Positions 3,443-30,206 of a DNA stretch of 30,206 bases are shown here, one piece after another; positions within the stretch are counted from its first letter, which is position 1, and the number at the start of each line of letters is the position of its first letter. Location: the NCBI GenBank assembly GCA_050303855.1, contig JBNLCO010000010.1, positions 1-30,206 of the forward strand, written 5' to 3'. This stretch comes from Candidatus Pacearchaeota archaeon (GTDB lineage Archaea > Nanobdellota > Nanobdellia > Pacearchaeales > GW2011-AR1). The position numbers and the translations under genes were made by a program. The notes below the pieces were generated by a model that did not search any database, was not told the DNA's origin, and saw only the letters and a program-made list of their open reading frames with translations.

Positions 3443-5230
3443 ATGGATTTTACTAAAATTAAGACAGAATGGGATTTTGACCCGTTGTTAAAAGAGGATT
3501 TCTCTCAAGAAAGGGAGAGAGTAAAGAAAGCTTTCTTGGGATTTAGAGATAAGTGGAAGGGTGATGAGAGATATTTAGAAGATCCGGCTGTTTTGAAAGA
3601 AGCTTTGGATGAACAAAACGTTTTGTTGAGAGACTATATGGGTTGTGAGGGATATTATTATCATCTCAGGGAGGAAAGAGATCAAGATGATGTTGAAATA
3701 AGATCTAAGGCAGGACAGATTTCTGATTTTATCAATGAAATAAATAATGAAATAATGTTTTTTGATTTGAATCTTGCAAAGGTATCAAAAGATAAACAGA
3801 AAGAATTCTTAGAATCGGATCTTCTGAAGACATATAATTATTATCTTAAGGTTTTATTTGAAAATGCAAAATATCATTTAAAGGAGGGGGAAGAAAAGAT
3901 AATGTCTTTGAAATCAATACCTTCTCGTTCTTTATGGGCCAGGATGGTTTCTTCTTTGTTGAGTAAAGAGACTAGAAAGGTATTGGACAATTCAGGAAAT
4001 ATGGTGGATAAAACATATCCAGAAATGACCGTTCTTATGCAAAGTTCCGATAAAGAAATCAGAGATGTTTCTGCAAAAGCATTTAATGAAATCATGGATA
4101 AATATGTAGAAGTTGCGGAATTTGAGATTAATGCCCTTCTTGAAGATAAAAAGATAAATGATAGTTTGAGAGGATTTTCTAGGCCTGATGAAGCAAGGCA
4201 CAGATCGGACTTAATTGAAACAGAAGTGGTAGATGCTCTTAGAGAAAGCGTTTCAAACAGAGGATTCAAGCTTTCAGAAAAATTCTATGATCTAAAAGCA
4301 AAGATTTTAGGTCTTGAGAAATTAAAATATTATGAAAGAAATGTGGAGCTGGGTTCTGTAAGAAAAGAATTTTCCTATGAAGAAGCCATTCAAATGGTAA
4401 GCAGAGTTTTCTATAAATTGGATAAAAAATTTGGAGAGATATTTGATGATTATTTGACTAAGGGACAAATAGACGTATTTCCAAAGAAGGGAAAATTTGG
4501 AGGGGCGTTTTGCACACATTGGTCTGTAAAAGACCCAACATATATTCTATTAAATTACGCAGGCAAGGTAAGAGATATTTCGACAATTGCTCATGAGGCA
4601 GGACATGGAATAAATAACGAGTTTATGAAAATGAAACAAATCCCTTTTTATTACGATACTCCAAAGTCTACTGCAGAAGTTGCTTCAACGTTTATGGAGG
4701 ATTTTGTTTTTGATGATTTACTAAATGAGGTAGAAGATGAAGAAAAACTGGGCTTATTACTTCAAAAACTAAACGAAGAGGTGGCTACAATAATGAGGCA
4801 AATTGCACTCTATAATTTTGAAATAGAACTTCATGAAACATATAGGAAAGAAAATTATCTTTCTAAGGAGAAAATTGCAGAAATGTTCATAAAACATATG
4901 CAAAGATACATGGGAGACTCTGTTGATTGCTCTGAGGCTGGAAATTGGTGGGTTTATTGGGATCACATAAGAGAGTATTTTTATGTGTACTCTTATGCTT
5001 CAGGACTATTGATTTCTAAGTCTATGCAAAAAATGGTTAGAGAAAATCCTGAGAATATTGAGAAAGTTAAAGAATTTTTATCTGCGGGAACTTCAGATAG
5101 TCCGAAAAATACTTTCCTTAAAATGGGGATTGATATAACAGATAAAGAATTCTGGGAAAAAGGATTGGACCAAGTTGAAAGTTTGTTAAATGAAACAGAA
5201 GAGCTTGCTAAGAAATTAGGCAAAATTTAA
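3443..5230 (+). CDS. pepF: Oligoendopeptidase F (M3B metallopeptidase)
   Basis: 595 aa; zinc-binding HEAGHG motif (IAHEAGHGINNEF); length and overall pattern of the M3B family. Confidence 0.85.
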   Translation: MDFTKIKTEWDFDPLLKEDFSQERERVKKAFLGFRDKWKGDERYLEDPAVLKEALDEQNVLLRDYMGCEGYYYHLREERDQDDVEIRSKAGQISDFINEINNEIMFFDLNLAKVSKDKQKEFLESDLLKTYNYYLKVLFENAKYHLKEGEEKIMSLKSIPSRSLWARMVSSLLSKETRKVLDNSGNMVDKTYPEMTVLMQSSDKEIRDVSAKAFNEIMDKYVEVAEFEINALLEDKKINDSLRGFSRPDEARHRSDLIETEVVDALRESVSNRGFKLSEKFYDLKAKILGLEKLKYYERNVELGSVRKEFSYEEAIQMVSRVFYKLDKKFGEIFDDYLTKGQIDVFPKKGKFGGAFCTHWSVKDPTYILLNYAGKVRDISTIAHEAGHGINNEFMKMKQIPFYYDTPKSTAEVASTFMEDFVFDDLLNEVEDEEKLGLLLQKLNEEVATIMRQIALYNFEIELHETYRKENYLSKEKIAEMFIKHMQRYMGDSVDCSEAGNWWVYWDHIREYFYVYSYASGLLISKSMQKMVRENPENIEKVKEFLSAGTSDSPKNTFLKMGIDITDKEFWEKGLDQVESLLNETEELAKKLGKI

Positions 5231-14518: not shown

Positions 14519-15235
14519 ATGGATATGAATATGGATATGCAACATCAGGCAATGGGTTACGATCGTACAGCTACAATGTTTTCTCCTGATGGACATTTGT
14601 TACAGGTAGAATATGCTGAAAAGACTGTAAGATTAGGAAGTTCTAGTATCGGAATGTCTTGTACGGACGGTGTTTTTATCTTAGCGGATAAAAGAATCGA
14701 AGATAAACTTATTGTAAGAGAATCTGCTACAAAGGTGTCTGAAATCGATTCGCATATAATCGCGAGTTCAGCAGGAATCCTATCTGATGCTAGAGTTCTT
14801 ATTGAGAGGGCACAAGTTTTATCTCAACAACATAGAGTTACTTATGATTCTGCAATAGAACCTGAATTAATAATAAAAGAAATTGCAAACACAAAACAAC
14901 AGTTTACACAATATGGTGGAGCAAGACCATTTGGTGTTTCAATGATGGTTGCAGGTGTTAATGAAAATAGACCCCAGCTATTTGTCAGCGATATTACTGG
15001 AAATTATTTCTCTTATTATGCAAACTCCATTGGAGAAGGTGATGACAAAATTAAAGAAAAATTAAGAGAAAGGTACAACAAAAACTTAGGAATTAAAGAG
15101 GGTGTTAAGCTTGCTTTAGAAATATTTAAAGAGATAAAGGGAGATAAGTTTGATATAAGTAAATTTGAACTTGCTTACATAGACCAAGATAAGAAGATAA
15201 AAAGAGTTGAAGGTTTAAAGATTGAGGAAATATAA
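14519..15235 (+). CDS. psmA: Proteasome alpha subunit
   Basis: GYDRTATMFSPDGHLLQVEYA signature; four in-frame ATGs at the start (MDMNMDMQ), so the true start may be 14537. Confidence 0.92.
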   Translation: MDMNMDMQHQAMGYDRTATMFSPDGHLLQVEYAEKTVRLGSSSIGMSCTDGVFILADKRIEDKLIVRESATKVSEIDSHIIASSAGILSDARVLIERAQVLSQQHRVTYDSAIEPELIIKEIANTKQQFTQYGGARPFGVSMMVAGVNENRPQLFVSDITGNYFSYYANSIGEGDDKIKEKLRERYNKNLGIKEGVKLALEIFKEIKGDKFDISKFELAYIDQDKKIKRVEGLKIEEI

Positions 15236-15648
15236 TGTTAAGAGAAGAGGACAGTTCAGGAGATAATTTTTACGAGCATTGTTTGAGAAAGGAAATTTCT
15301 AGCCAAAAGGAGTTAAAATTATCCTATTCTCCAGGAGATATGAACCAATTTCATATGTCTGGGATGATGGAAGTTAAAGATATGAATTGTTTAATTGGAT
15401 ATTATCTTGCATTAAGGGATGATGAAAAAGGCGGTAAAAATTTCTTTGTAAATGATCTATTAACCCTTGGAGAGATTGATGAAGGGGAATTAGAGAAAGT
15501 AATTAATTTTAATGAGAAATTTGCAAAAAATCTAGATTGTTCGGGAATCACTGTTGAGGGAGGGGATGATGAAGTGAAGGGTTTTTATGAAAAGAAAGGA
15601 TATATTTTTGAGGAGGGAGAATATATTGGATTTAAAGAATTAAAATAA
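15235..15648 (+). CDS. Hypothetical protein, possibly a minimal GNAT-like acetyltransferase
   Basis: 137 aa; C-terminal VKGFYEKKGYIFEEGEYIGF resembles the GNAT FYEKxGF motif; TAATG overlap with psmA stop. Confidence 0.45.
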   Translation: MLREEDSSGDNFYEHCLRKEISSQKELKLSYSPGDMNQFHMSGMMEVKDMNCLIGYYLALRDDEKGGKNFFVNDLLTLGEIDEGELEKVINFNEKFAKNLDCSGITVEGGDDEVKGFYEKKGYIFEEGEYIGFKELK

Positions 15649-15658
15649 AATTTCTGAG

Positions 15659-15925
15659 ATGAGCATTCAAGATTTAAGAGAAGATTATGGAAAGGCTTGG
15701 GATTTGGACGAGATTGAAATTAGTATGGATTCTAAGTTGAGAGAAATGGGGGCAATTCTTTCTGGAGGAGATTTTGAAAAGGCAGATTTATTTAAAAATT
15801 ATACTAGAAGTTATTTTTTGTTAAGGGAAGCTGCTATGGAAAAAGGTATGGAAGACGAAAAATTAAAAAGGTATGATTCTACTTATCTTAATAATATTGA
15901 AAAATCGGTAAAAGAATTAAAATGA
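15659..15925 (+). CDS. Hypothetical protein (88 aa)
   Basis: ORF in operon context; ATGA overlap with the downstream sdo1 start. Confidence 0.4.
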   Translation: MSIQDLREDYGKAWDLDEIEISMDSKLREMGAILSGGDFEKADLFKNYTRSYFLLREAAMEKGMEDEKLKRYDSTYLNNIEKSVKELK

Positions 15926-16593
15926 CTAACGTAACAGCACGAATTAAGAAAGCAGGGAAACATTTTGAAGTTTTGGTAGATCTTGACGATGCTATGAAAT
16001 TTAAGAGGGGAGAAAGTAGTTTTATTCAGGCTGAAACACAAGATATTTTTAGAGATTTAAAGAAAGGAGATAAAGCCCCTACTTCAGATTTAATGGAAGC
16101 GTTTGGAACAGAAGATGTTAATGAAATAGTTAAGAGGATTGTTAAAGAGGGAGAAATCCAAACAACACAAGAATTTAGGGACGAGGAACATGAGAAAAAG
16201 ATAAAACAAGTTGTAGAATTCTTAGCAAGGAATGCTATTGATCCTCAGACAAGAAATCCCATTACTCCTGAAAGAATAAAGAGTGCTTTAGAACAGGCTC
16301 ATGTTAATATAAAAAATGCTTCAATTGAGAGCCAAATTGGAGATATTTTGGATGCTTTGACAAAGATAATTCCAATAAAGATTTCCACTAAAAAGGTAAA
16401 GGTTACAATTCCTGCTATGCATACTGGAAAAGCTTATGGTGCAATTTCAACTTATAAAAAATCAGAAGATTGGAAAGATGATGGAAGTTTAGAGGTAGTT
16501 GTTGAAGTTCCAGCAGGAATTATTATGGATTTTTACGATAAATTAAATTCTGTAACGCATGGAAGTGCTTTGACTGAAGAGATTAAAGAATAA
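15922..16593 (+). CDS. sdo1: Ribosome maturation protein Sdo1 (SBDS family)
   Basis: 223 aa; N-terminal ARIKKAGKHFEVLVDLDDAMKFKRGE and ..TSDLMEAFGTEDVNEIVKRIVKEGEIQ.. match the SBDS pattern; conserved position upstream of rrp4. Confidence 0.82.
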   Translation: MTNVTARIKKAGKHFEVLVDLDDAMKFKRGESSFIQAETQDIFRDLKKGDKAPTSDLMEAFGTEDVNEIVKRIVKEGEIQTTQEFRDEEHEKKIKQVVEFLARNAIDPQTRNPITPERIKSALEQAHVNIKNASIESQIGDILDALTKIIPIKISTKKVKVTIPAMHTGKAYGAISTYKKSEDWKDDGSLEVVVEVPAGIIMDFYDKLNSVTHGSALTEEIKE

Positions 16594-16602
16594 TTCTATA
16601 AA

Positions 16603-16734
16603 ATGGATGAATATATTAGCAAATTGGATCTAATTAGAGAGAATTACAAAGATTTAAATACTAACTGCCAGACTGAAATAGTAGATAGATTGTACTTCAA
16701 AATTAAAAATAGTAAAGATTTTGACAAAGATTAA
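16603..16734 (+). CDS. Possible small ORF (43 aa, MDEYISKLDLIRENYKDLNTNCQTEIVDRLYFKIKNSKDFDKD) between sdo1 and rrp4
   Basis: Not in the ORF track (below length cutoff); fills the sdo1-rrp4 gap exactly and ends 1 nt before the rrp4 ATG; no recognised homology. Confidence 0.2.
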   Translation: MDEYISKLDLIRENYKDLNTNCQTEIVDRLYFKIKNSKDFDKD

Positions 16735-16735
16735 G

Positions 16736-17473
16736 ATGGCTGAGAGAAAAGTTGTAATACCAGGAGAAGAAATTGTTTCTAGCGAGGGTTATTTACCTGG
16801 GGAGAATACCGAGAAAAGAGGAGAATCTATTGTTTCTTTGAGATTTGGACTTGCTGAAGAAATAAATAAGCTTGTGAAAGTTATTCCTTTATCTGGAGCT
16901 TACGTTCCAAGAAGAGGTAATGTTGTTATAGGAAAAGTTGAAATGCTTACTGGAAACGGTTGGGTTTTTGACATTGGTGGTGCAGATAACGGATTTTTAT
17001 CTTTGAATGAGGTTCCAAGATATGTTAATCAAAATGCAATGGATGAAGTTTTCAAAATAGGAGAGATGGCAGTTCTTAAGATTTGGAATATTGGAGGAAG
17101 AGGTATTGATTTAAGTATTAAATCAAGAGGATTAGGAAGAATTGATGAAGGAATTGTGTTTAAGGTTAATCCAAATAAAGTACCAAGAATAATTGGTAAA
17201 GAAGGGAGTATGATAAAGCTGATTAAAGAAAATACTAACTGCGATATAACTGTTGGGCAGAATGGATACGTCTGGATTGTTGGAGATAAGGTGGAGGATG
17301 AGATATTTGGAAGAAAAGCGATTGATTATGTTGTTGAAAATTCATTTGTTGAAGGTTTGACTGATTCTGTTGAGAAATGGTTTGAATCTCAAGGAATTAA
17401 GATTAAAAGATCAATGAGTGATATACAGGATGAAGTTACTGCAGAAGTTGAAGCAATGGAGGATGGAGAATAA
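16736..17473 (+). CDS. rrp4: Exosome complex RNA-binding subunit Rrp4 (S1 + KH)
   Basis: S1-like central domain, KH GxxG motif IIGKEGSMIKLIKE; start placed at ATG 16736, since the track's TTG extension is unlikely. Confidence 0.9.
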   Translation: MAERKVVIPGEEIVSSEGYLPGENTEKRGESIVSLRFGLAEEINKLVKVIPLSGAYVPRRGNVVIGKVEMLTGNGWVFDIGGADNGFLSLNEVPRYVNQNAMDEVFKIGEMAVLKIWNIGGRGIDLSIKSRGLGRIDEGIVFKVNPNKVPRIIGKEGSMIKLIKENTNCDITVGQNGYVWIVGDKVEDEIFGRKAIDYVVENSFVEGLTDSVEKWFESQGIKIKRSMSDIQDEVTAEVEAMEDGE

Positions 17474-18183
17474 TGGCAGAATTTAAGAGACCAGACGGAA
17501 GAAAAGTGAATGAAATGAGGCCTTTCGAGGCTAAAGTTGGAGTAATTCCAAATGCAGATGGAAGTGCAATGTATAAATCAGGAGATACTATTGCAATAGC
17601 TGCTGTTTACGGTCCAAAGAAAATGCATCCACAGCATTCACAAAATCCTGAAAAGGGAACTTTGAGATGCACTTACAATATGAATAGTTTTTCAGTTTCG
17701 GAGAGAATAAGACCTGGACCTTCAAGAAGAAGTATGGAAATTTCTAAGATAACTGAGTGGGCTCTAGAACCAGCTGTAATGTTGGAAGCTTATCCTAATC
17801 AGGTTGTTGATGTTCACATAAATATAATTCAAGCAGACGCTGGAACAAGATGTGCTGGGATAAATGCGGCTGCGATGGCTCTTGCTCACGCAGGAATACC
17901 TATGAAAGATATGGTTTGTTCTGTTTCTGTTGGTAAATTGGATAAGACTGTTGTGGTTGATTTAGACAAAACTGAAGAAGACTTTGAAGAAGGAGAAGGT
18001 CCAACGGATATCCCAATATCTATGACAAATTCAGGAGAGATAACTCACTTGCAATTAGATGGTAAAATAAATGCTTCACAATTAAAAGAAGCAATTGAAA
18101 TGGCTAAAGAAGCATGTAAACAAATTTATGAAGCTCAAAAAGAAGCATTAAAGAATGCAGTAGATATGGAGGGTAAAAAATGA
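17473..18183 (+). CDS. rrp41: Exosome complex exonuclease Rrp41 (RNase PH domain)
   Basis: RPDGRKVNEMRPFEAKVGVIPNADGSAMYKSGDTIAIAAVYGP classic Rrp41 N-terminus; ATGA-type overlap with rrp4. Confidence 0.9.
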   Translation: MAEFKRPDGRKVNEMRPFEAKVGVIPNADGSAMYKSGDTIAIAAVYGPKKMHPQHSQNPEKGTLRCTYNMNSFSVSERIRPGPSRRSMEISKITEWALEPAVMLEAYPNQVVDVHINIIQADAGTRCAGINAAAMALAHAGIPMKDMVCSVSVGKLDKTVVVDLDKTEEDFEEGEGPTDIPISMTNSGEITHLQLDGKINASQLKEAIEMAKEACKQIYEAQKEALKNAVDMEGKK

Positions 18184-18992
18184 GCGGAGAAGGAATTGAA
18201 ATAACATCCGATGTGAATGGAAGAAGAATAAAGAAATACCTAGACGAAGGTAAAAGATTTGATGGTAGAAAGCCAGAAGAATTTAGAGAACTAGTTATAG
18301 AGAGAGGTGTTTCAAAAAAGGCTGAAGGATCTGTTAAAGTTAAGTTAGGAAAGACGGAAGTTATTGTTGGAGTTAAATTAGATGTTGGTACACCATATCC
18401 TGATTCAAAAGATAAAGGAAATTTGATGGTGACTGCTGAGATTTTACCTTTGAGTTCTCCAAGAATAGAGTTAGGAAAGCCAGGATTTGATTCCATTGAG
18501 TTAGGAAGAGTTATTGATAGAGGAATTAGGGAAAGTAAATTAATTGATTTAGGAAAATTATGTATAACTGAAGGAGAAAAAGTTTGGACTGTATTTATTG
18601 ATATTTATTCAATAAATGACGATGGAAATTTACTTGATGCTGCTGGAATTGGAGCATTAGCTGCTTTGAAAGTTGCGAAGGTTCCCAAGTATGATAAAGA
18701 AAATGAGAAAATACTTTATGGAGAATATGAAGGAGATTTGCCCTTGAATAATGTTAATCCAATTTCGATAACTGTTCACAAAGTTGGAAATGGTCTATTG
18801 GTAGATCCTACAAGAGAAGAAGAAGATGTAAGTGAAACAAGAATAACTATGGGTGTTTCTGAGGGAGTTATTTCATCAATGCAGAAAGGTAATTCTAAAC
18901 CACTTAAGACTGAAGAAGTTATAAATGCTATAGAAATGGGAGAAAAAGTTTGGGGGGAATTGTTTAAAAACCTAGAAAAACAACTGAAATAA
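18180..18992 (+). CDS. rrp42: Exosome complex subunit Rrp42 (inactive RNase PH-like)
   Basis: 270 aa RNase PH-fold protein directly after rrp41 with a 4-nt overlap. Confidence 0.88.
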   Translation: MSGEGIEITSDVNGRRIKKYLDEGKRFDGRKPEEFRELVIERGVSKKAEGSVKVKLGKTEVIVGVKLDVGTPYPDSKDKGNLMVTAEILPLSSPRIELGKPGFDSIELGRVIDRGIRESKLIDLGKLCITEGEKVWTVFIDIYSINDDGNLLDAAGIGALAALKVAKVPKYDKENEKILYGEYEGDLPLNNVNPISITVHKVGNGLLVDPTREEEDVSETRITMGVSEGVISSMQKGNSKPLKTEEVINAIEMGEKVWGELFKNLEKQLK

Positions 18993-18993
18993 G

Positions 18994-19377
18994 ATGGCAG
19001 AACAAATGCACGATTTTACAAAATATGAGAGAGCAAGAATTATTGGAGCTAGAGCTTTACAGCTAGCTATGAATGCGCCCTTATTGATTAAATTATCTGA
19101 AGAAGATTTAGAGAAAATCCACTATGATGTTCTTAAAATAGCAGAAGTTGAGCTTGATTCAGGGGTTTTACCTATTTCCGTTAACAAACCTTTCCCGAAA
19201 AAGAAGGAAGGAATTTTGAAGAAGGTAGTTACTCCAAAGGTTAGTGATGAGCGAAAAGAGAAAATGGAAGAAGCTGAAGAAGAAAAAATAGAAGATGAAG
19301 GCGAGATAATGGAACTTGCTAACCCAGATGACGAAGCTGATGAAACAGAGTCTGGTGATGAAAGGGAAGATATGTAA
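18994..19377 (+). CDS. rpoK: DNA-directed RNA polymerase subunit K (Rpb6/omega homologue) with long acidic C-terminal extension
   Basis: TKYERARIIGARALQLAMNAPLLI and GVLPISV match the RpoK core; residues about 75-127 are Glu/Asp/Lys-rich low complexity. Confidence 0.82.
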   Translation: MAEQMHDFTKYERARIIGARALQLAMNAPLLIKLSEEDLEKIHYDVLKIAEVELDSGVLPISVNKPFPKKKEGILKKVVTPKVSDERKEKMEEAEEEKIEDEGEIMELANPDDEADETESGDEREDM

Positions 19378-19434
19378 GTTTAGCGGTATTTCTCAAACAA
19401 CAATTCTTAAAAACTAGTGATTTTTTGTGTAGAC

Positions 19435-20607
19435 ATGGTCGTAATAAAAGGGGTTGAAGCTAAAGCAGTTTTGGATTCTAGGGGTGAGAAGACTATTTCT
19501 GTTACAATTAAGACAGAAATAGGGGATTTTACAAGTTCCGCTCCAAATGGAAAATCCACAGGGAAGCATGAGGTTAAGAGTTATAAAAAAGATATTAATA
19601 CCGCGATAAAGAAAATGAAAGATTTTTCTGAATACTTTTCTGAGGAAATTATAGAGAAGTTTGATGATTTGAAAAGGGTTGAAGATATATTAGAGGGTCA
19701 TGTTGGTGCAAATACCCTTTTTGCATTTGAATCTTCTGTTTTGAAGGCTTTAGCTAGTGAACAACAAAAAGAAATATGGGAAATAATAGATCCTAGTACT
19801 CGTGATAGGAAGAAATTTCCAAGATTAGTAGGGAATTGTGTTGGAGGCGGAAAACATTCTTCAGGTGTTGAAAAGAAACCTGATTTCCAAGAGTTTGAAC
19901 TGATACCTGACAAGAAGACAGTAAAAGAAAATCATGATGCTAATATTAAAGCTAAAGAGCTTGTTGGAAATATGTTAATGGAGAAAGATAAAGAGTTTAC
20001 GGGTTTGAAAAATGATGAGAATGCCTGGGTTACTTCTTTGAATGAGAAAGAGGTATTGGATATATTAAATCAAACTAAAATTCCTGCAGGTTTGGATATT
20101 GCTGCTTCTAGTATCTATAAAAGAAGAAAATACCACTATGAGAATCCTATGTTGAAAAGAGATAAGGAAGAACAGGTAGGATATGTCTCTAATTTAATTA
20201 AGAATTATAATTTATTTTATATTGAAGATCCGTTTGGAGAAGAGGAATATGAAAGTTTTGCTCAATTACTCGCCAAACACCCAAATAGTCTGATTGTAGG
20301 GGATGATTTGACTGTTACAAGTTCAAAAAGATTACAAAAAGCCATAGAGATGAAAAGCATTAATGCAATTATTGTGAAGCCTAATCAGTGTGGGTCTCTT
20401 TTAGAAGTTAAGAGGGTTTGTGATTTAGCTAAAGCGAATAATATCAAGACTGTATTTTCCCATAGAAGTGGCGAGACTGATGAAAAAATTTTAGCAGATT
20501 TAGCTTTTGGTTTTGGTGCTGATTTCTTTAAATCAGGGACTGAAGGGGATGTTCGTGAAAAGAAAATATTGAGATTGATTGAGATTGAAGATAGTTTGAA
20601 ACAATAA
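19435..20607 (+). CDS. eno: Enolase (short, divergent)
   Basis: N-terminal AKAVLDSRGEKTISVTIKTE..GKSTGKHE; metal/catalytic positions retained (QEF, LDIAASS, IEDPF, IVGDDLTVT, KPNQCG, SHRSGETDE, KSGTEG); start placed at ATG 19435 rather than the track's GTG at 19417. Confidence 0.8.
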   Translation: MVVIKGVEAKAVLDSRGEKTISVTIKTEIGDFTSSAPNGKSTGKHEVKSYKKDINTAIKKMKDFSEYFSEEIIEKFDDLKRVEDILEGHVGANTLFAFESSVLKALASEQQKEIWEIIDPSTRDRKKFPRLVGNCVGGGKHSSGVEKKPDFQEFELIPDKKTVKENHDANIKAKELVGNMLMEKDKEFTGLKNDENAWVTSLNEKEVLDILNQTKIPAGLDIAASSIYKRRKYHYENPMLKRDKEEQVGYVSNLIKNYNLFYIEDPFGEEEYESFAQLLAKHPNSLIVGDDLTVTSSKRLQKAIEMKSINAIIVKPNQCGSLLEVKRVCDLAKANNIKTVFSHRSGETDEKILADLAFGFGADFFKSGTEGDVREKKILRLIEIEDSLKQ

Positions 20608-20650
20608 ACCCATCACAATCTTTTTAAACTGACTTTTTCTCTGAATTGTT

Positions 20651-21493
20651 ATGCCAAAGACAAAGAAAACAGAAGATAATGTTAGTGAAGAAGTTTCTGA
20701 GAAAGATATAGCTGAAGAAGCTGAAAAAGAATCTAATGATAATAGTAAGGAAGCTAAATCTGTAGAGGACAAGAAAAAAGCTCTACTTGAGAAAGCTGCT
20801 AAACTTAAGGAGAAATTAGGAGAGGAAGCTCCTACTTCTGAAGAACTTAAAGAACAAGTTAAAGCTAAGAAGAAATCTGATATGCTTGTTCCTCTTGAAG
20901 AATATGTTAAAGCTGGAATTTATTTAGGAACCAAAGTAGTCACTCCAGATATGAAACAATATGTTTATAGAAGAAGGGCTGATGGATTAGCAATATTCAA
21001 TACAGATATAATTGATGAGAAATTAAAAGAAGGGATAGTATATTTATCTAAGTTTAATCCTGAAGATGTTGTTTTAGTTTGTAAAAGACAAGCTGGATGG
21101 AAAGCTGTGGAGAAATTCTCTGAATTAACAGGGATAAGAGTATTCACAAAGAAATATCCCGCGGGGGTTTTGACAAATACTAATTTGCCTGATTTCTTTG
21201 AAAATGAATTAACAATTGTTACGGATCATTGGGTGGACAAGAATGCACTTAATGATACTTTGAGGGTAAACAAGAAAGTTTTGATGATCTGTGATACAAA
21301 CAATTTCTCAAAGGGATCTAACCAAATAATAATTGGAAATAATAAATCTCAAAAGAGTCTTGGAGTAATATTTTATCTTCTTTCAAGAGGTTATTTGAAA
21401 TCTAGAGGAGAAGATACTTCAAAGGTTCCAGATTTAGAATGGTGGACTGGAGAGATTGAAGATAAGGATAAAGGCGCTTCTAAGGGTGTTTAA
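20651..21493 (+). CDS. rps2: 30S ribosomal protein uS2 with an N-terminal Lys/Glu-rich extension of about 75 aa
   Basis: LVPLEEYVKAGIYLGTKVVTPDMKQYVYRRRADGLAIFNTD...GVLTN matches archaeal S2; N-terminal low-complexity KE-rich segment. Confidence 0.9.
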   Translation: MPKTKKTEDNVSEEVSEKDIAEEAEKESNDNSKEAKSVEDKKKALLEKAAKLKEKLGEEAPTSEELKEQVKAKKKSDMLVPLEEYVKAGIYLGTKVVTPDMKQYVYRRRADGLAIFNTDIIDEKLKEGIVYLSKFNPEDVVLVCKRQAGWKAVEKFSELTGIRVFTKKYPAGVLTNTNLPDFFENELTIVTDHWVDKNALNDTLRVNKKVLMICDTNNFSKGSNQIIIGNNKSQKSLGVIFYLLSRGYLKSRGEDTSKVPDLEWWTGEIEDKDKGASKGV

Positions 21494-24001: not shown

Positions 24002-25443
24002 AATTCCAGTTGATCCTGCTGGCGGCTGCGGCTCTCTGGTTTGCGCTTAGACATGCAAGTTATATTCTTAGAAATAGGAGTAAGCGAACTGCTCAGTAAC
24101 ACGTAGCTAATCTACCCTTAAGTCAAGGATAACCTCGGGAAACTGAGGGTAAACCTCGATAGGAGACATACCCTGGAATGATTTGTCTCTCAAACTCGTG
24201 CTTAAGGATGAGGCTGCGGCGGATTAGGTTGTTGGCGGGGTAAAGGCCCACCAAGCCGAAGATCCGTAAGGGCTCTTAGCGGAGAGGCCCTGAGAGGGAA
24301 TCTGAGACACTATTCCCAGCCCTACGGGGTGCAGCAGTTAGGCATCATCTACAATGCGCGAAAGCGTGATAGTTTGAGCCAGAGTGCTTTACAAAGTAAA
24401 GCTTTTGCCAAATCTAAAAATTTTGGCGAATAAGGACTGGGTAAGACGGGTGCCAGCCGCCGCGGTAATACCCGCGGTCCAAGTCGCAGCCATTTTTATT
24501 GGGTCTAAAACATCCGTAGCTTGCTTAACAAGTTTCTTGTGAAATCTGATATCTCAAGTATTGGGCGGGCAAGAAGTACTATTAAGCTAGAGACTGGTAG
24601 ACGTAACGAGTACGTTCGGAGTATCGGTAAAATGAGTTAATCCCGGACGGACTAACAACAGCGAAGGCACGTTACGAGGACAGTTCTGACAGTAAGGGAT
24701 GAAGGCTAGGGGCGCGAAAGGGATTAGATACCCCTGTAGTCCTAGCAGTAAACACTGTACACTAAACATCGGGACCTCTTCGAGAGGTTTCGGTGCTGCA
24801 GCGAAGGCGAAGAGTGTACTACCTGGGAAGTATAGGCGCAAGCCCGAAACTTAAAGGAATTGGCGGGGAGACACTACAACGGGTGACGCGTGCGGTTCAA
24901 TTAGATTTTACACCGTGAACCTCACCAGGAGCGACAGCAGAATGAAGGTCAGTCTGAAGGGCTTACCTGACACGCTGAGATGAGTTGCATGGCCGACGTC
25001 AGCCTGTGCCGTGAGGTGACCTGTTAAATCAGGTAACAGGCAAGACCCGCATCTTTATTTACTACGTGTACAATAAAGAGATTGCCTTGGTAACGAGGAT
25101 GAAAGTTCGGGCTACGTTAGGTGAGTACAGCCAGAATCCCCTGGGCTACACGCGCGCGTCAACGGCAGATACAATTGGATGCAACACCGAAAGGTGGAGC
25201 CAACCCCCTAAAGTCTGTCTCAGTCTAGATCGAGGTTTGCAACCCAACCTCGTGACACTGGAATCCGTAGTAATCGTTTGTTATCAGCGAACGGTGAATA
25301 TGTCACGGTCTCTTGCACACACTGCCCGTCAAACCAACCGAGTTTATTTATGATGAAACTTTTCGAAGGAGAATCTTGAGTAGACAAGGTAGGTTAAGTC
25401 GTCACAAGGTATCTGTAGGGGAACCTGCAGATGGATCACCTCC
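24002..25443 (+). rRNA. rrs: 16S rRNA, about 1442 nt (short); no intron
   Basis: Archaeal 5' end attccagttgatcctgctgg; gtgccagccgccgcggtaatac (515-536 site) at 24451; aaacttaaaggaattggcgggg at 24848; tgcatggccg at about 24978; cacacactgcccgtca at about 25318; 3' end ggatcacctcct at 25432-25443. Confidence 0.93.
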
Positions 25444-25546
25444 TATATTTTATATTAACCTTAAGGCAATCGCAAGAACTAGATTGTCTTCTACATACAA
25501 TCCGTTGCAGAAAATTTAAAAACTGCCGAGAGCTAACTTTAATCAA

Positions 25547-25618
25547 GGGCTCGTTGTCCAATGGTTAAGATACTTGACTTGCACTCAGGAGATCCGTGTT
25601 CGATTCACGGCGAGTCCA
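25547..25618 (+). tRNA. tRNA-Ala (anticodon UGC) in the 16S-23S spacer; CCA not encoded
   Basis: Hand-folded cloverleaf: acceptor gggctcg/cgagtcc with G3:U70 (Ala identity pair), anticodon stem cttga/tcagg, loop cTTGCac, T arm ccgtg-ttcgatt-cacgg, discriminator A. Confidence 0.85.
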
Positions 25619-25692
25619 TAGGTTTTTAGATTAATTCTGTAATACACTTAACATTAAACTCAAAGGAAAAAATAAAATGAATGGAGTAGAAA

Positions 25693-25995
25693 ATGAACCA
25701 CCCCGCACTGGAAGAGGAAGTAGGTCCAGTGGAAGCTGTATTAGAAGTTACAGTGGGCAGCGGAGAGGATACAAAGACTTCATTCCTTTATGCTTCAAGA
25801 ATTAACGGTAATGGATCTTGGAGATACATACGTGGAAACGGAAAGGGTTACAAGAAAGATATGGACCCTGAAAGACTTTCCGAGAATATGGTTAGAGCCA
25901 GTATTCAAAGAGGTTATACCGAATATCAGGTTCACTATCTTTGGAGTCCCAAAGGTGGCCAAGAGAAAGAAGGAATAGTAAAAATCAAAAATTAA
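25693..25995 (+). CDS. ORF in rRNA spacer (100 aa), SD-preceded, unknown function
   Basis: GGAG 6 nt upstream of ATG; higher GC than the genome background; stop overlaps the 15-nt motif AATCACACTCACAAA, then a hairpin; could be a chance ORF in structured spacer RNA. Confidence 0.3.
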   Translation: MNHPALEEEVGPVEAVLEVTVGSGEDTKTSFLYASRINGNGSWRYIRGNGKGYKKDMDPERLSENMVRASIQRGYTEYQVHYLWSPKGGQEKEGIVKIKN

Positions 25996-26008
25996 TCACA
26001 CTCACAAA
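25994..26008 (+). repeat. 15-nt direct repeat AATCACACTCACAAA, copy 1 (copy 2 at 26331-26345); each follows one spacer ORF and precedes a hairpin
   Basis: Exact 15/15 identity read directly from the sequence. Confidence 0.8.
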
Positions 26009-26051
26009 AATGAGAAGAATCCGAAGTGATTTTCGGGTTTAGGAAAACAAA

Positions 26052-26303
26052 ATGGCAATGAAATTGGAACAAATTGAAGGAATGAAAATTCCAGTTGGAG
26101 CTTCAATCAACATAAGTTTTTGGACAGGAAAGTTTGAATTTGATCTCTTCCAAGATAAGCCCCATGAAAGACAAGGTTGCTTTAAAGAGATTATGAACTT
26201 CCCCGGAATTGCCCCCACATTAAAATATACCGCAAATGATGAAGACGTAGAATGCGCAATCAAGTATATAGAAGACATAAAAATCCTAGATTACAAAAAA
26301 TAA
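26052..26303 (+). CDS. ORF in rRNA spacer (83 aa), SD-preceded, unknown function
   Basis: AGGA 7 nt upstream of ATG; followed by a second copy of AATCACACTCACAAA (26331-26345), then hairpin acttcag..ctgaagt. Confidence 0.3.
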   Translation: MAMKLEQIEGMKIPVGASINISFWTGKFEFDLFQDKPHERQGCFKEIMNFPGIAPTLKYTANDEDVECAIKYIEDIKILDYKK

Positions 26304-26330
26304 ATCACCGACGGAGAAATCCGTTTCACA

Positions 26331-26345
26331 AATCACACTCACAAA
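26331..26345 (+). repeat. 15-nt direct repeat AATCACACTCACAAA, copy 2
   Basis: Exact match to 25994-26008. Confidence 0.8.
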
Positions 26346-26479
26346 CAAAAACTTCAGTTTTAGACGGCTGAAGTGTGGGAATGGTTCGACATCCGAACGA
26401 TGACGGATCATTTTGAGAACACGAGTTGAAGAACTTGCTATGTTCGATCCAGAAATGGATTAAACATTTACGTTCAATG

Positions 26480-26498
26480 AAATAAGTAGCAGAATCCC
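26480..26498. repeat. 23S processing-stem arm (aaataagtagcagaatccc), perfectly complementary to 30131-30149
   Basis: 19/19 bp complementarity flanking the 23S; typical archaeal pre-rRNA bulge-helix-bulge (BHB) processing-stem architecture. Confidence 0.7.
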
Positions 26499-28390
26499 AC
26501 TTATAATAATGAATATTTTCATTTATGAAAATTTCTCAGACTATACTACTATTTATACTGATAGAAGGATAGCTTGGTTTTGGTTATGATGAAGGACGTG
26601 GCAAGCTGCGATAAGCTTGGGGGAGTTGCATGCAGACTTTAATCCCAAGATCTCCGAATCACGCAGAGATGCGAAAGTACGCCGGGAATTGAAACATCTT
26701 AGTACCGGCAGGAAGAGAAAATAAATAATGATTCCCTTACTAGCAGCGAGCGAAAAGGGAAGAGGGCAAACTGAATCTCCTTTTGAAAGGAAGGCAGAGA
26801 TGTGGTGAAGGTAAATGGCTAAGTCAACGAGTCAAAGTCAACTGGAAAGTTGTACCATAGAGGGTGATAGTCCCGTAGATTAAGTTGATATGTTGTTCTT
26901 CAAAGAGTAGGGCGTCTTGAATTAGGCGTCTGAATATGGCAGGATTAACTGCTAACCCTAAATAAAACCAAAGTCCGATAGCGCACAAGTACCGCGAGGG
27001 AAAGCTGAAAAGAACTCTTAACAGAGTGTGAAAAGATTTGAAATCTATCAGTTACAGTTGGCTACTGACTCGGCTATGCAAATAGCAGGTTTGTAGCGTA
27101 CGTTTTGAAAAACGGGCCAAGGAGTTTATCTATGTGGCAAGGCTAATCTATTATGTAGAGTAACCGAAGCGAAAGCAAGTATGAAAATGCGCTAGTCACA
27201 TGGATCAGACCTGAAGCGAGGTGATCTATCTATGAGCAGGATGAAGTCTTTCGAAAGGAGGATGGAGGTCCGAACCGGTGTTATGGACATGTACTCGGAT
27301 GACTTGTGGATAGGGGTGAAAAGCCAATCTAACTTCGCGATGGCTGGTTCCTGTTGAAATATGCCTCCGTATAGTCTTGTCTTGTTTGTTAGCGGTGTAA
27401 AGCTACGGATAGAGTTTGCAGGGTCAATCGATTACGGAACTCTTTTCAACTCAGAAGCTGCTAATTGCATAAGACAGGAAACAGGGTCGGTATGTAAGAT
27501 ACCGTTCCGAGACCTAAACAAAGGAGACTAGAGTTAAGGTCCCAAAATTCATGCTAAGTGTACCAAAAGTCGTCTCGAACCTGAGACACTGGGGATGTAG
27601 GCCCAGAAGCAGCCATCATTTAAAGAAAGCGTAACAGCTCACCCATTGAGGTTCAGGGCACTGAAAATGGACGGGGCTAAGCATGATACCGATACTTTAG
27701 CGGCACTCAGTAGAGTGTTCGGGTAAGCAGGCGTGGTTTCTGCGCAGAAAGTTCTTCGAGAGAAGGGCTGGAGCGGAAACTAATGAGAATCTTGGTAATA
27801 GTAGGATGTGATTATTCTGAGAATGAATAACGTCGAAAGGGCAAGGTTTCCTTAGCAATATATGTTAGCTAAGGGTTAGTCAGTAACCTAAGTTGTACCT
27901 TAACTGCGTATGACGATGGACATCAGGTTAATATTCCTGGACTAATTGAATCTTATATAGTGTATTCCGCTTTCGGATAGGCGAGCACCTGAAAGGGTGT
28001 TTTGGCAAAGAAAACTGTTGAGGGTAATCCTAAGATGCAGAAGAATTTGTTGGACAAAATCGCTGAGTCCAGGAGCCAGTGAAAAAAATATACTCTTGGT
28101 TCAATTATCTGTACCCACAACCGGCACTGGTGCCCAGGCTTAGTAGGCCAAGACGTGAAGGGAAAAACCGTTTGAGGGAATTCGGCATGTTAGCCCTGTA
28201 TCTTCGGATGAAGGGGTGTCTATCTTTGTGCGCTTAGTAATTTGTGTGCATTGGTAGATCTCAGTAACAAGGACGGCCCGACTGTTTACCAAAAACGTAG
28301 CCAAGTGCTAATCAGAAATGACGTGTATACTTGGTGAGACCTGCCCAGTGGTGGTGTCTTAAACTCCTTTTCAAGGGAGCTAAGGTCCAT

Positions 28391-28425
<35 letters not shown>

Positions 28426-29164
28426 AATTACGTTGCCTTACGGATTGTAGAAATATAATACGCTCCGAGAGTTATAGTAAAACGGTCAAAGAATTAAACC
28501 AAATGGAGAAAATCGAACTATATGCTGGAAAACCCGAGTATATCACTCTACGACGATAACTAATTTATTTATAGTTAGTTCGCGTGAAAATGAGATGATT
28601 GCGGATAATCAGCAGGAAAGACTAAATCCTTTATGGATTTCAGGTTTTACCGATGGTGAAGGATGCTTCCATGTATCCATAAACCAAATTCATAAAATGA
28701 GTTTAGGATGGCAAGTTCTTCCTGAATTTAGAATTGTTCAACATGAAAAAGATGAATCTGTTTTAGAAAAGATCAAAAATTATTTTGGTTTTGGAAATGT
28801 TAAAATTAACAGAACAGATAAACATGGAACAAGAAAAGAATTCAGAGCTAGAGGATTAGAAAATTTGAATAAAATTGTAGAATTTTTTAAAGAATACCCT
28901 CTTGAAACTTCGAAGAAAAATGATTTCAAAATCTTTTCTGAAGTTATAGAATTGATGAATAATAAAGAACATTTATCAAAAGAAGGACTAGATAAAATCG
29001 CCAAGCTAATTTCTCAAATGAATCGTAAACCAAATTTAAAGTATTTAGAATCCTCAGAGACTACACGTTCGACACTTCGAAAGGAGTGAAGATATAGTCC
29101 GACCTTTATAGCGATATAAAGAATTGTGTTTTGCTCTTTTAGATAAACACAGATTAACATAATG
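28426..29164 (+). mobile_element. 23S rRNA intron (probably archaeal BHB type) inserted between ...cttaaggta and gcgtaatgccttgtc (E. coli about 1932/1933, H69-H71 junction); boundaries +/- a few nt
   Basis: Exon1 + exon2 join to cttaaggta|gcgtaatgccttgtcatctgaatggtgacgcgcatgaatgg, which matches the universal CCTAAGGTAGCGAAATTCCTTGTCGGGTAAGTTCCGACCTGCACGAATGG with compensatory changes in the hairpin; the intervening 739 nt contains a LAGLIDADG ORF. Confidence 0.7.
28595..29089 (+). CDS. LAGLIDADG homing endonuclease, single-motif (homodimer-type), intron-encoded
   Basis: 164 aa; LNPLWISGFTDGEGCFHV = LAGLIDADG motif (GFxDGEG); basic C-terminal region; located wholly inside the 23S intron. Confidence 0.8.
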   Translation: MIADNQQERLNPLWISGFTDGEGCFHVSINQIHKMSLGWQVLPEFRIVQHEKDESVLEKIKNYFGFGNVKINRTDKHGTRKEFRARGLENLNKIVEFFKEYPLETSKKNDFKIFSEVIELMNNKEHLSKEGLDKIAKLISQMNRKPNLKYLESSETTRSTLRKE

Positions 29165-30130
29165 AGCGTAATGCCTTGTCATCTGAATGGTGACGCGCAT
29201 GAATGGTTTAACGAGGTTGTCGCTGTCCCCAAATGGAGCCCTCTGAAAATATTTTCCGGTGCACAGACCGGAGACGCCTAGTGGGAAGTGAAGACCTTGT
29301 GGAACTTTACTGCAACTTGTTGTTGTGAAATTAATCGAAACGCATAGCATAAGTAGGAGCGTCGAAGCAGTCATTTCGGTGGCTGTGGAGCGAAAGTGTA
29401 ATACTACTCATTTTGTTTAGTTTTGCTTACTGTTTACAGGACAGCAGCAGGCGGGCAGTTTGACTGGGGCGGTGCCCAGCCGAAAAGATATCGGTTGGAC
29501 CCAAAGACAAGCTCATCCGGCTTGGAAATCCGGAGATGAGTGCGAGGGCAAAAGCTTGTCTGACTGTGTTTCGAAAAGTAAGAAACGCAGGTACGAAAGT
29601 AGGGCCTAGTGAACCCACGTGCTTTTTTAATAGAAGCCGTGTCTGATAGAAAAGTTACCCCAAGGATAATAAGCTGGTCGCTCCCGATAGTCCACATTGA
29701 CGGAGCGGTTTGGTATTTCGCTGTCGGCTCTCCCTAACCTGCGCGTGCAGCAGCGTGCAAGGGTGTCGGAGTTCACGCATTAAAAGGGATCGTTAGCTGG
29801 GTTAAGAACGTCGCGAGACAGTTTGTATAATATCTACTAGGTGTGTTGTTGTCTGAGTGGAACAATCTTTTAGTACGAGAGGAACGGAGGTTGGGTGCCT
29901 CTAGTGAGCAGTTGTCATTTGGCAGGCTGCATAGCCACGCACTACTTGGATAAGAGCTGAATGCATCTAAGCTCGAAGCCAATCGCAAAACGAGACAACA
30001 AAGGCCGTTGAAGAAGACAACGTTGATAGAGCTATTGTGTAAGATTCAAGCTTCGGCGAGAATTTCAGCATATAGCAACTAATAGCCTCATTTGTATATT
30101 CTTGAGAAGTTTTTAGAAAAGCGTCATTAG

Positions 30131-30149
30131 GGGATTCTGCTACTTATTT
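30131..30149. repeat. 23S processing-stem arm (gggattctgctacttattt), partner of 26480-26498
   Basis: 19/19 bp reverse complement. Confidence 0.7.
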
Positions 30150-30206
30150 ATTGTAACATTTTTTAGGATAATTTTTAAAAACATTTTATTCATTTATTTA
30201 TTATGA

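Follow-up and report, generated by a model that had tools for sequence, protein, structure and literature searches.

We analysed a stretch of 30,206 nucleotides (nt) of a Candidatus Pacearchaeota archaeon (contig JBNLCO010000010.1 of assembly GCA_050303855.1), here called the window, and in particular the spacer of its ribosomal RNA (rRNA) operon, in which two open reading frames (ORFs) lie between the gene for alanine transfer RNA (tRNA-Ala) and that for 23S rRNA. All features described are on the plus strand unless stated otherwise. The operon has the features of a canonical archaeal one, namely the order 16S - tRNA-Ala - 23S on a single strand and long inverted repeats around the 16S and 23S genes. 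The 16S rRNA gene (24003-25444; Rfam RF01959, 1284 bits) ends in the anti-Shine-Dalgarno sequence GGATCACCTCCT and is followed by an intron-free tRNA-Ala (TGC) at 25547-25618, found by ARAGORN and Rfam, and by the 23S rRNA gene at 26541-30102 (Rfam RF02540), which carries an insertion bearing a LAGLIDADG ORF. The 5' strand of the 23S processing stem (26472-26545) cofolds with its 3' strand (30095-30156) at -55 kcal/mol, the flanks of the 16S gene pair too, and both processing stems are intact.

The original prediction had placed two ORFs with ribosome-binding motifs in the tRNA-Ala-23S spacer, and we confirmed them as ORF1 (25693-25995, 100 amino acids (aa)) and ORF2 (26052-26303, 83 aa), preceded by GGAG (25683-25686) and AGGA (26041-26044) at distances of 6 and 7 nt from their respective ATG codons. 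It had also described the spacer as unusually long and richer in GC than its flanks, which agrees with a 16S-23S spacer of 1097 nt, compared with 296-510 nt in relatives that lack ORFs, and with a GC fraction of 0.35-0.40, compared with 0.28-0.30 in the intergenic DNA upstream of the 16S gene. Because an independent Logan contig is identical over the spacer region, an assembly artefact is excluded. Sequence comparisons indicate that both ORFs are real conserved protein genes, ORF1 belonging to a new family (family A) and ORF2 to a second one (family B). The segment that holds them is filled in about two thirds of the relatives that we sampled with one 23S-stem DNA motif, a figure that is not a census (spacer counts here and below are among the matches listed), and families A and B were found there only.

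Coding evidence for ORF1 and ORF2

A word-indexed search with ORF1 returned three homologues at 52-58% identity, and a profile search of 1.84 billion representative proteins added about twelve others, all small (77-111 aa), with identities of 21-61% across the family; in total we count four homologues as close and twelve as distant. The original prediction had asked whether homologues recur in rRNA spacers, and those of both ORFs do so in related archaea. In every locus that could be read, 15 distinct ones under the names L001-L004, L006-L010, L041, L045, L046, L051, L128, L129 and L142 (related loci are given by L numbers), the family A gene has the same strand as the rRNA genes and sits between tRNA-Ala and 23S. 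Family A peptide patterns had no match in GTDB representative genomes or JGI metagenomes. Among four close sequences the ratio of nonsynonymous to synonymous substitution rates (dN/dS) was 0.23-0.60, the proportion of synonymous differences (pS) was about twice that of nonsynonymous differences (pN), nucleotide differences were concentrated at third codon positions and all gaps were in frame, so that the codon-substitution check proposed with the original prediction came out in favour of a coding sequence here. The codon usage of ORF1 was likewise gene-like, with a log-likelihood of 0.367 bits per codon that was positive in the annotated frame only (window genes, 0.415 +/- 0.113).

The structure prediction that had been suggested for both peptides was informative for ORF1, where an AlphaFold2 model built from 16 sequences gave a confident beta4-alpha-beta2 fold (pLDDT 85, pTM 0.74), and uninformative for ORF2, which was modelled from its single sequence (pLDDT 41). 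We found no known family or fold match for ORF1 in Pfam, NCBIfam, or PDB sequence and fold searches, and we dropped the idea of a DUF1508 or YegP-like domain, as there was no significant match to PF07411 and no fold match to YegP structures. In most members of family A the isoelectric point (pI) is basic, at 8.7-10.1; for ORF1 in the window it is 6.7. The protein has a conserved aromatic and basic beta-hairpin, YASRINGNGSWRY.R.NGQ. As a separate observation, the codons for YASRINGNGSWRY (window 25790-25830) are near-invariant even at synonymous positions in six lineages, including L001, L003, L004, L045 and L046, unlike the rest of ORF1, where pS is 0.3-0.6; a preference for particular codons, or an overlapping constraint on RNA or DNA, might explain this invariance.

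The first homologue search with ORF2 returned ORF2 itself alone, and the spacers sampled through the 23S-stem motif then yielded six homologues at 30-43% identity, all in the same slot. Members of family B share their ends, LEKIKEMNIPVGTPIE at the N-terminus and IEDIKILEYKK at the C-terminus, around a very variable middle, and the strongest argument that ORF2 is coding is that its frame stays open in seven lineages despite this variability. ORF2 encodes an acidic protein; its codon-usage log-likelihood of 0.280 bits per codon is again positive in the annotated frame only, and an ATG ORF of 83 codons arose in 60 of 5000 shuffles of the insert. Two other accounts of its origin were set aside. 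An alignment with L001 and L004 had made ORF2 look like a private insertion of 337 nt, which we dropped after seeing the layout of L046 and the family B homologues, and a diverged tandem copy of ORF1 was rejected on an hhalign probability of 0.1% and on a z score of 1.6 when the two 341-nt units were aligned globally as DNA. Only the junctions and the RNA module described below are duplicated, not the ORF bodies.

Two further observations concern the ORF2 region. With a negative codon score of -0.11 bits per codon, a 79-codon ORF on the minus strand (26039-26278) that mirrors ORF2 was taken to be a by-product of the sense ORF and not a gene. An inverted repeat of 14 nt (93% complementary) connects 25485-25498, in the 3' strand of the 16S stem, with 26264-26277 inside ORF2.

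Leaders and the spacer RNA module

Just 3' of the tRNA there is a run of five T residues (25623-25627) that may be a partial archaeal terminator, and nearly all relatives have a T-run directly after the tRNA. The leader of ORF1 (25647-25692) is conserved in distant family A members. It opens with a TATA-like A/T box, CTTAACATTAAAC (25647-25659), about 26 nt before a conserved ATG(G/A)A, and this box may act as a promoter; Halobacterium offers a precedent for an internal spacer promoter. Besides the Shine-Dalgarno GGAG, the leader contains AAGGA (25663-25667) and an out-of-frame ATG at 25677. From this conserved ATG a 42-codon ORF (25677-25805) runs out of frame with ORF1; it is open in L046, its frame is not kept in L001, and we rejected it as a gene, as it looks like a relic cassette junction. 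The leader of ORF2, AGGAAAACAAA (26041-26051, including the Shine-Dalgarno site), is also found ahead of second or third cassettes of L046 and L074.

The original prediction had further noted a 15-nt motif and a hairpin after each ORF, which we verified. The motif AATCACACTCACAAA occurs in exactly two copies, at 25994-26008, where it overlaps the ORF1 stop codon, and at 26331-26345, and nothing else in the window comes under three mismatches. The first copy is homologous to the motif after ORF1 in L001, L045 and L046, and the second is the copy common to relatives with a single ORF. The first copy overlaps hairpin P1 (26001-26014, CUCA-CAAAAA-UGAG), for which both folding and covariation provide evidence, and is followed by a P3-like hairpin, AAUCCGAAGU..AUUUUCGGGUU (26017-26040), the predicted ccgaa/ttcgg stem, which folds better than shuffled sequences (z -2.7) and has near-identical counterparts in L046 and, at the P3 position, in the ORF-less L019. 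Between ORF2 and the second copy is a small hairpin with a GAAA loop (26310-26325, GACGGA-GAAA-UCCGUU) that is conserved in L004, L071 and L074. The second copy leads into the P1' helix CUCAC/GUGGG (26338-26379), which encloses the inner hairpin ACUUCAGUU/GGCUGAAGU, the predicted acttcag/ctgaagt stem (z -2.6), with compensating sequences in its place in L001 and L046. This is followed at 26380-26420 by hairpin P3, AUGGUUCGA..CGGAUCAU, and the conserved sequence UUGAGAAC, which are kept in every related spacer; P3 occurs in two covarying forms, GGUUCCGAA/UUCGGAAUC and GGUGAGAGA/UCUCUUAUC.

These elements belong to a module that extends well beyond the window, since AATCA(Y)A(Y)TCA follows the tRNA in essentially every related spacer, those without ORFs included. 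Its successive parts are the single-stranded (C)ACAAAUCAUA, hairpin P1 (the end of the motif forming its 5' arm), hairpin P3, and the sequence AUUUUGAGAAC, after which comes the 23S stem. The covariation of P1 was examined in 56 motif instances as YUCA..UGAR, of which 32 were paired, compared with a mean of 9.5 and a maximum of 20 in shuffles; the motif Y and the R of UGAR formed T-A in 20 instances and C-G in 11. The folds of the module gave z scores of -2.6 to -4.4 against shuffles, and the distance from the end of an ORF to the motif was 0-30 nt in almost all cases. The window carries a duplication of the module's front (motif, P1 and P3-like hairpin), one copy behind each ORF. Because the module is also present in ORF-less spacers, the motif is a general spacer element that opens a lineage-wide RNA module and is not an ORF-specific signal. 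An alternative offered with the original prediction, that chance ORFs lie in a structured spacer whose repeats are RNA elements, is thus refuted as to the ORFs and upheld as to the repeats, which are part of the module whether or not ORFs are present. Rfam contained no known RNA family matching the spacer. Pairing of the motif with the 16S leader, a C/D box in the P3 region, and pairing of UUGAGAAC with the 23S leader were all considered by eye, and none was conserved in relatives.

The small-gene slot in related operons

The 16S rRNA of the window is 88-91% identical to those of metagenome-assembled genomes (MAGs) labelled Candidatus Woesearchaeota, Pacearchaeota or Nanoarchaeota, which makes the organism a DPANN archaeon of this group, and the corresponding segment of related operons frequently contains ORFs. 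An ORF of at least 45 aa follows the tRNA in 47 of 68 complete spacers; ORFs are almost absent from spacers of up to 510 nt, and in those of at least 620 nt one to three are nearly always present. Of the 64 unique spacers, 43 contain sense ATG ORFs of 55 codons or more, one to three per spacer. Each of the 43 beats 95% of composition-preserving shuffles, and in 42 of them the in-frame codon score is positive and higher than in the other frames (means of 0.357 in frame, and -0.85 and -0.57 out of frame).

BLASTP sorts the spacer ORFs into at least 10 families, which besides A and B include proteins of 106-111 aa, two-helix membrane peptides, a family represented in L046 and L028, and a ParE-family toxin in L044. 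This clustering is to be read with the caution that ORFs running into the RNA module share C-terminal tails (NHKSYS, NHTQNEKMVPEEIPESV), through which BLAST may link unrelated proteins. Many of the spacer proteins start with M(N/T)..LE(I/V)..DG, and several of the groups may be one very divergent superfamily. Family A itself was detected by a hidden Markov model (HMM) in six of the 68 complete spacers. Leader types track rRNA lineage and not protein family: one type precedes both family A and the 106-111 aa group, and another precedes family B, the membrane peptides and the L046/L028 family.

The content of the slot differs even between close relatives. L040, which has no ORF, and L165, which has a membrane peptide, are 98.4% identical in the 5' 350 nt of 23S (L019 is empty too), and L028 and L102, with 96.6% identity in the 23S 5' end, carry ORFs of different families. 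L046 reproduces the layout of the window, with a family A ORF, the motif, P1, the CCGAA hairpin, the leader AAAACAAAATG, a second ORF and a further copy of the motif; the L046 junctions match those of the window at about 90% identity, and its second ORF is unrelated. In L074 (Ga0315547_1007378, spacer 350-1150) a family B ORF comes first, its start codon being the counterpart of the window's out-of-frame ATG (25677), and after it come a family-A-like ORF and a 71-aa ORF with a weak match to the winged-helix end of MCM (NCBIfam, E 0.018). Junction sequences are common to cassettes of different families, AAAAATAAAATG on the 5' side and TACAAAAAATAA on the 3' side. This pattern of turnover is consistent with cassettes that come, go and change order through recombination at the junction repeats. 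A small mobile cassette was thus the closest of the candidates in the original prediction: slot turnover between close relatives and junctions common to different families support it. Integrase, transposase and nuclease motifs were absent from every cassette and from the 20 window neighbours scanned. Viral contigs contained no relatives of family A or B.

Several observations on individual operons accompany this survey. L044 (JBDRGP010000006.1, a Woesearchaeota MAG) has a 1.7-kb spacer in which the ParE-family toxin (Pfam E 4.6e-10) occupies spacer positions 950-1406, its start overlapped by a 71-aa acidic ORF that is likely the antitoxin; a 78-aa ORF is also there, and the L044 16S gene contains an insertion of about 820 nt. 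The tRNA-Ala gene has an intron in several relatives (gene of about 92 nt; L001/L002 151-242, L014, L074) and none in the window. Four Woesearchaeota-type archaeal rRNA operons (L020, L028, L035 and L039) are in contigs filed as bacterial MAGs (Paceibacterota, Syntrophales, Patescibacteria and 'bacterium'), which look like binning errors. A match to the 23S processing-stem motif in a viral collection (L167, IMGVR_UViG_3300001213_000187, 3794-3819) is either a virus or a mis-filed rRNA operon fragment.

Upstream in the window, the neighbours belong to the usual archaeal core gene set (FttA, proteasome alpha and beta, Rad50/Mre11, RNase J, exosome Rrp4/41/42, RpoK, enolase and uS2), and the stretch just 5' of the rRNA operon (14519-21493), with proteasome alpha, Rrp4/Rrp41/Rrp42, RpoK, enolase and uS2, confirms the chromosomal context. 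Downstream, the 23S match covers 3562 nt against a model of 2987 positions and contains a low-GC insertion (0.25-0.34) at 28450-29200. This insertion, with its LAGLIDADG ORF of 164 aa (28595-29089; Pfam PF00961 LAGLIDADG_1, E 2.3e-28), is probably an rRNA intron with a homing endonuclease.

Interpretation and relation to known systems

We consider it rather probable that the segment from tRNA-Ala to the 23S stem is a conserved small-gene slot in the rRNA operons of Woesearchaeota/Pacearchaeota-type DPANN archaea, whose ORFs lie on the 23S rRNA precursor and encode fast-evolving accessory proteins. In the window the slot holds two cassettes, ORF1 (family A, alpha+beta) and ORF2 (family B, acidic), each with its own Shine-Dalgarno site. 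Between the ORFs and the stem we see neither a terminator nor a promoter, which is why we place the ORFs on the 23S precursor; this precursor might arise by read-through from the 16S promoter, from the promoter-like box after the tRNA, or from both. Cleavage by RNase Z at the tRNA 3' end and by the splicing endonuclease at the 23S stem would then release a coding RNA, which could be translated from its own ribosome-binding sites with an output that tracks rRNA synthesis. Recombination at the common junction repeats, aided by the conserved rRNA flanks, would add, remove and reorder cassettes. The slot is occupied by unrelated families, by membrane peptides and by a toxin pair, and for this reason we favour accessory proteins over core ribosome parts.

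Several points weigh against this interpretation. Co-transcription with 23S, release by processing and translation are steps that we infer, recombination at the junction repeats is deduced from layouts, and the T5 runs after the tRNA and inside ORF2 (26120-26124) could each terminate archaeal transcription. For family B, the codon-substitution evidence is weaker: a dN/dS of 0.3-1.3 indicates that purifying selection is weak, and in the conserved N-terminus synonymous sites are conserved as well, so a constraint on the RNA may account for some of that conservation. Family A similarity correlates poorly with 23S similarity (Spearman -0.15), which saturation fits as well as exchange between lineages does, and the slot was sampled through a single stem motif.

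A bolder form of the same idea, which we offer tentatively as a possibility, is a DPANN spacer gene-cassette system, in which unrelated short genes would be inserted, duplicated, reordered and exchanged at junction repeats, with the rRNA flanks serving as homology arms, and translated from the by-product of rRNA processing. The repeats in question would be AAAAATAAAATG on the 5' side and TACAAAAAATAA plus the AATCAYAYTCA motif on the 3' side.

The ORFs might instead be selfish passengers of no benefit to the host, tolerated in the slot and spread by homologous recombination through the rRNA flanks in the manner of homing-endonuclease genes. We regard this as unlikely. The patchy distribution and rapid turnover would suit such passengers, as would the ParE toxin pair in the L044 slot, the LAGLIDADG gene in the window 23S and a family B dN/dS near 1. 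However, purifying selection and a confident fold in family A, together with 43 spacers that keep their ORFs open with gene-like codon usage, are not what this explanation leads one to expect, and it is further weakened by the lack of nuclease, integrase or transposase motifs in the cassettes and the 20 scanned neighbours and of relatives in viral contigs.

It is distinctly unlikely, in our judgement, that these are ordinary small genes between functionally unlinked rRNA genes, with a 16S-tRNA transcript that stops at the T-run, a promoter and a terminator belonging to the ORFs, another promoter for 23S, and no translation from an rRNA precursor. Such an arrangement would account for the T-run after the tRNA in nearly all relatives and for the conserved A/T box upstream of ATG(G/A)A, and unlinked archaeal rRNA genes are on record (bioRxiv 10.1101/705046). 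Yet the region between the last ORF and the 23S stem contains a tightly conserved structured module and no clear terminator or promoter-like box, the stem requires a transcript that starts upstream of 26472, and relatives without ORFs keep both the T-run and the module within a spacer of 300-500 nt.

Another explanation would make ORF1 a candidate lineage-specific ribosome-linked factor, either a ribosomal protein or a chaperone of the rRNA precursor, that is made in step with rRNA. Its position would provide automatic co-regulation with rRNA, and the basic character of most family A members and the aromatic/basic beta-hairpin would suit such a role, but we think the explanation quite improbable given the near-neutral pI of the window protein, the absence of family A from most related spacers, which have unrelated proteins including membrane peptides instead, and the lack of sequence or fold similarity to ribosomal or biogenesis proteins in PDB searches.

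The original prediction had also named a toxin-antitoxin-like pair, an idea that did not survive. ORF1 and ORF2 are adjacent small genes on the same strand, one near neutral and one acidic, and a real ParE pair sits in the L044 slot; even so, a type II pair is highly improbable, since family A occurs alone in L001, L004 and L045 and family B alone in L079, L099, L102, L119 and L127, the order is reversed in L074, the family A ORF of L046 is partnered by an unrelated ORF, neither protein matches toxin, antitoxin or defence models (Pfam, PADLOC, NCBIfam), and a structured module of 56 nt separates the two ORFs. Finally, it is barely credible that these are chance ORFs in an A-rich, T-poor structured spacer conserved on RNA alone. 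In favour of this, a T-poor sense strand lowers the frequency of stop codons, parts of the ORF ends are conserved synonymously and some ORFs read into the RNA module with the tails mentioned above; against it, such ORFs are rare in composition-preserving shuffles, their codon usage is gene-like in one frame only, and family A combines synonymous excess, in-frame indels and a confident protein model.

We return to the small-gene slot and compare it with known systems. In the archaeal rRNA operons described to date, the spacer is, to our knowledge, non-coding and a few hundred nt long. The canonical archaeal 16S-tRNAAla-23S operon has the same gene order, spacer tRNA-Ala and long inverted repeats around 16S and 23S, whereas spacers of the window type add one to three ORFs predicted to be translatable and a lineage-specific RNA module. 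Homing-endonuclease genes in archaeal rRNA introns are likewise protein genes within an rRNA unit, patchy in distribution and flanked by conserved rRNA, but ORF1 and ORF2 lie outside the mature rRNAs as delimited by Rfam and not within an intron, have their own Shine-Dalgarno sites and belong to a slot with multi-gene arrays; neither has a Pfam match, LAGLIDADG, GIY-YIG, HNH and His-Cys box domains included.

Coding DNA between 16S and 23S is also found in unlinked or interrupted prokaryotic rRNA operons and as ORFs in chloroplast rRNA spacers. As far as is known, unlinked and interrupted operons have ordinary genes separating the rRNA genes, and the chloroplast cases are isolated organelle ORFs, whereas here we find families restricted to the slot, intact processing stems and cassette-like content. 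Integron arrays are alike in having short ORFs in one orientation, a hairpin repeat after each, variable content and presumably one upstream promoter, and in the window, L046 and L074 a motif and hairpin follow each ORF. The slot differs from integrons in that the same module is present in ORF-less spacers, each cassette has its own ribosome-binding leader, and no tyrosine-recombinase integrase was found among the 20 neighbouring window proteins scanned; we do not claim that it is one.

Yeast TAR1 and mitochondrial humanin are small proteins encoded within ribosomal DNA (rDNA). RIEP, from the human rDNA intergenic spacer (PMC9992852), is likewise a small protein from a ribosomal DNA unit. These are single cases that are antisense, intergenic or located in rRNA genes, in contrast to a conserved sense slot in the transcribed spacer of an order-level clade. 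We found no description of spacer-encoded proteins in archaea in the open-access literature, and none of the spacer proteins was named in a collection of 15 billion proteins. What is new here is thus the two protein families and the lineage-wide slot, protein genes inside rRNA transcription units being already known. Prokaryotic rRNA spacers are treated as non-coding and are usually masked by gene callers and rRNA pipelines, and because of this masking the spacer proteins were overlooked.

If the ORFs are translated, a by-product of rRNA precursor processing would serve as messenger RNA in archaea, and protein output would be coupled directly to rRNA synthesis. Ribosomes would then be at work beside an rRNA precursor that is still folding. 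One may ask what keeps the two processes apart, and the structured module after each stop codon is a candidate insulator between translation and 23S folding. Through the slot, spacer sequence also becomes a richer marker for long-read surveys of rRNA operons. For the biology of these episymbiotic DPANN archaea, the slot represents a compact natural system for the rapid turnover, and possibly the birth, of small proteins, and if the gene-cassette system proposed above is real, the most strongly transcribed unit of the cell would double as an expression platform for fast-evolving accessory proteins.

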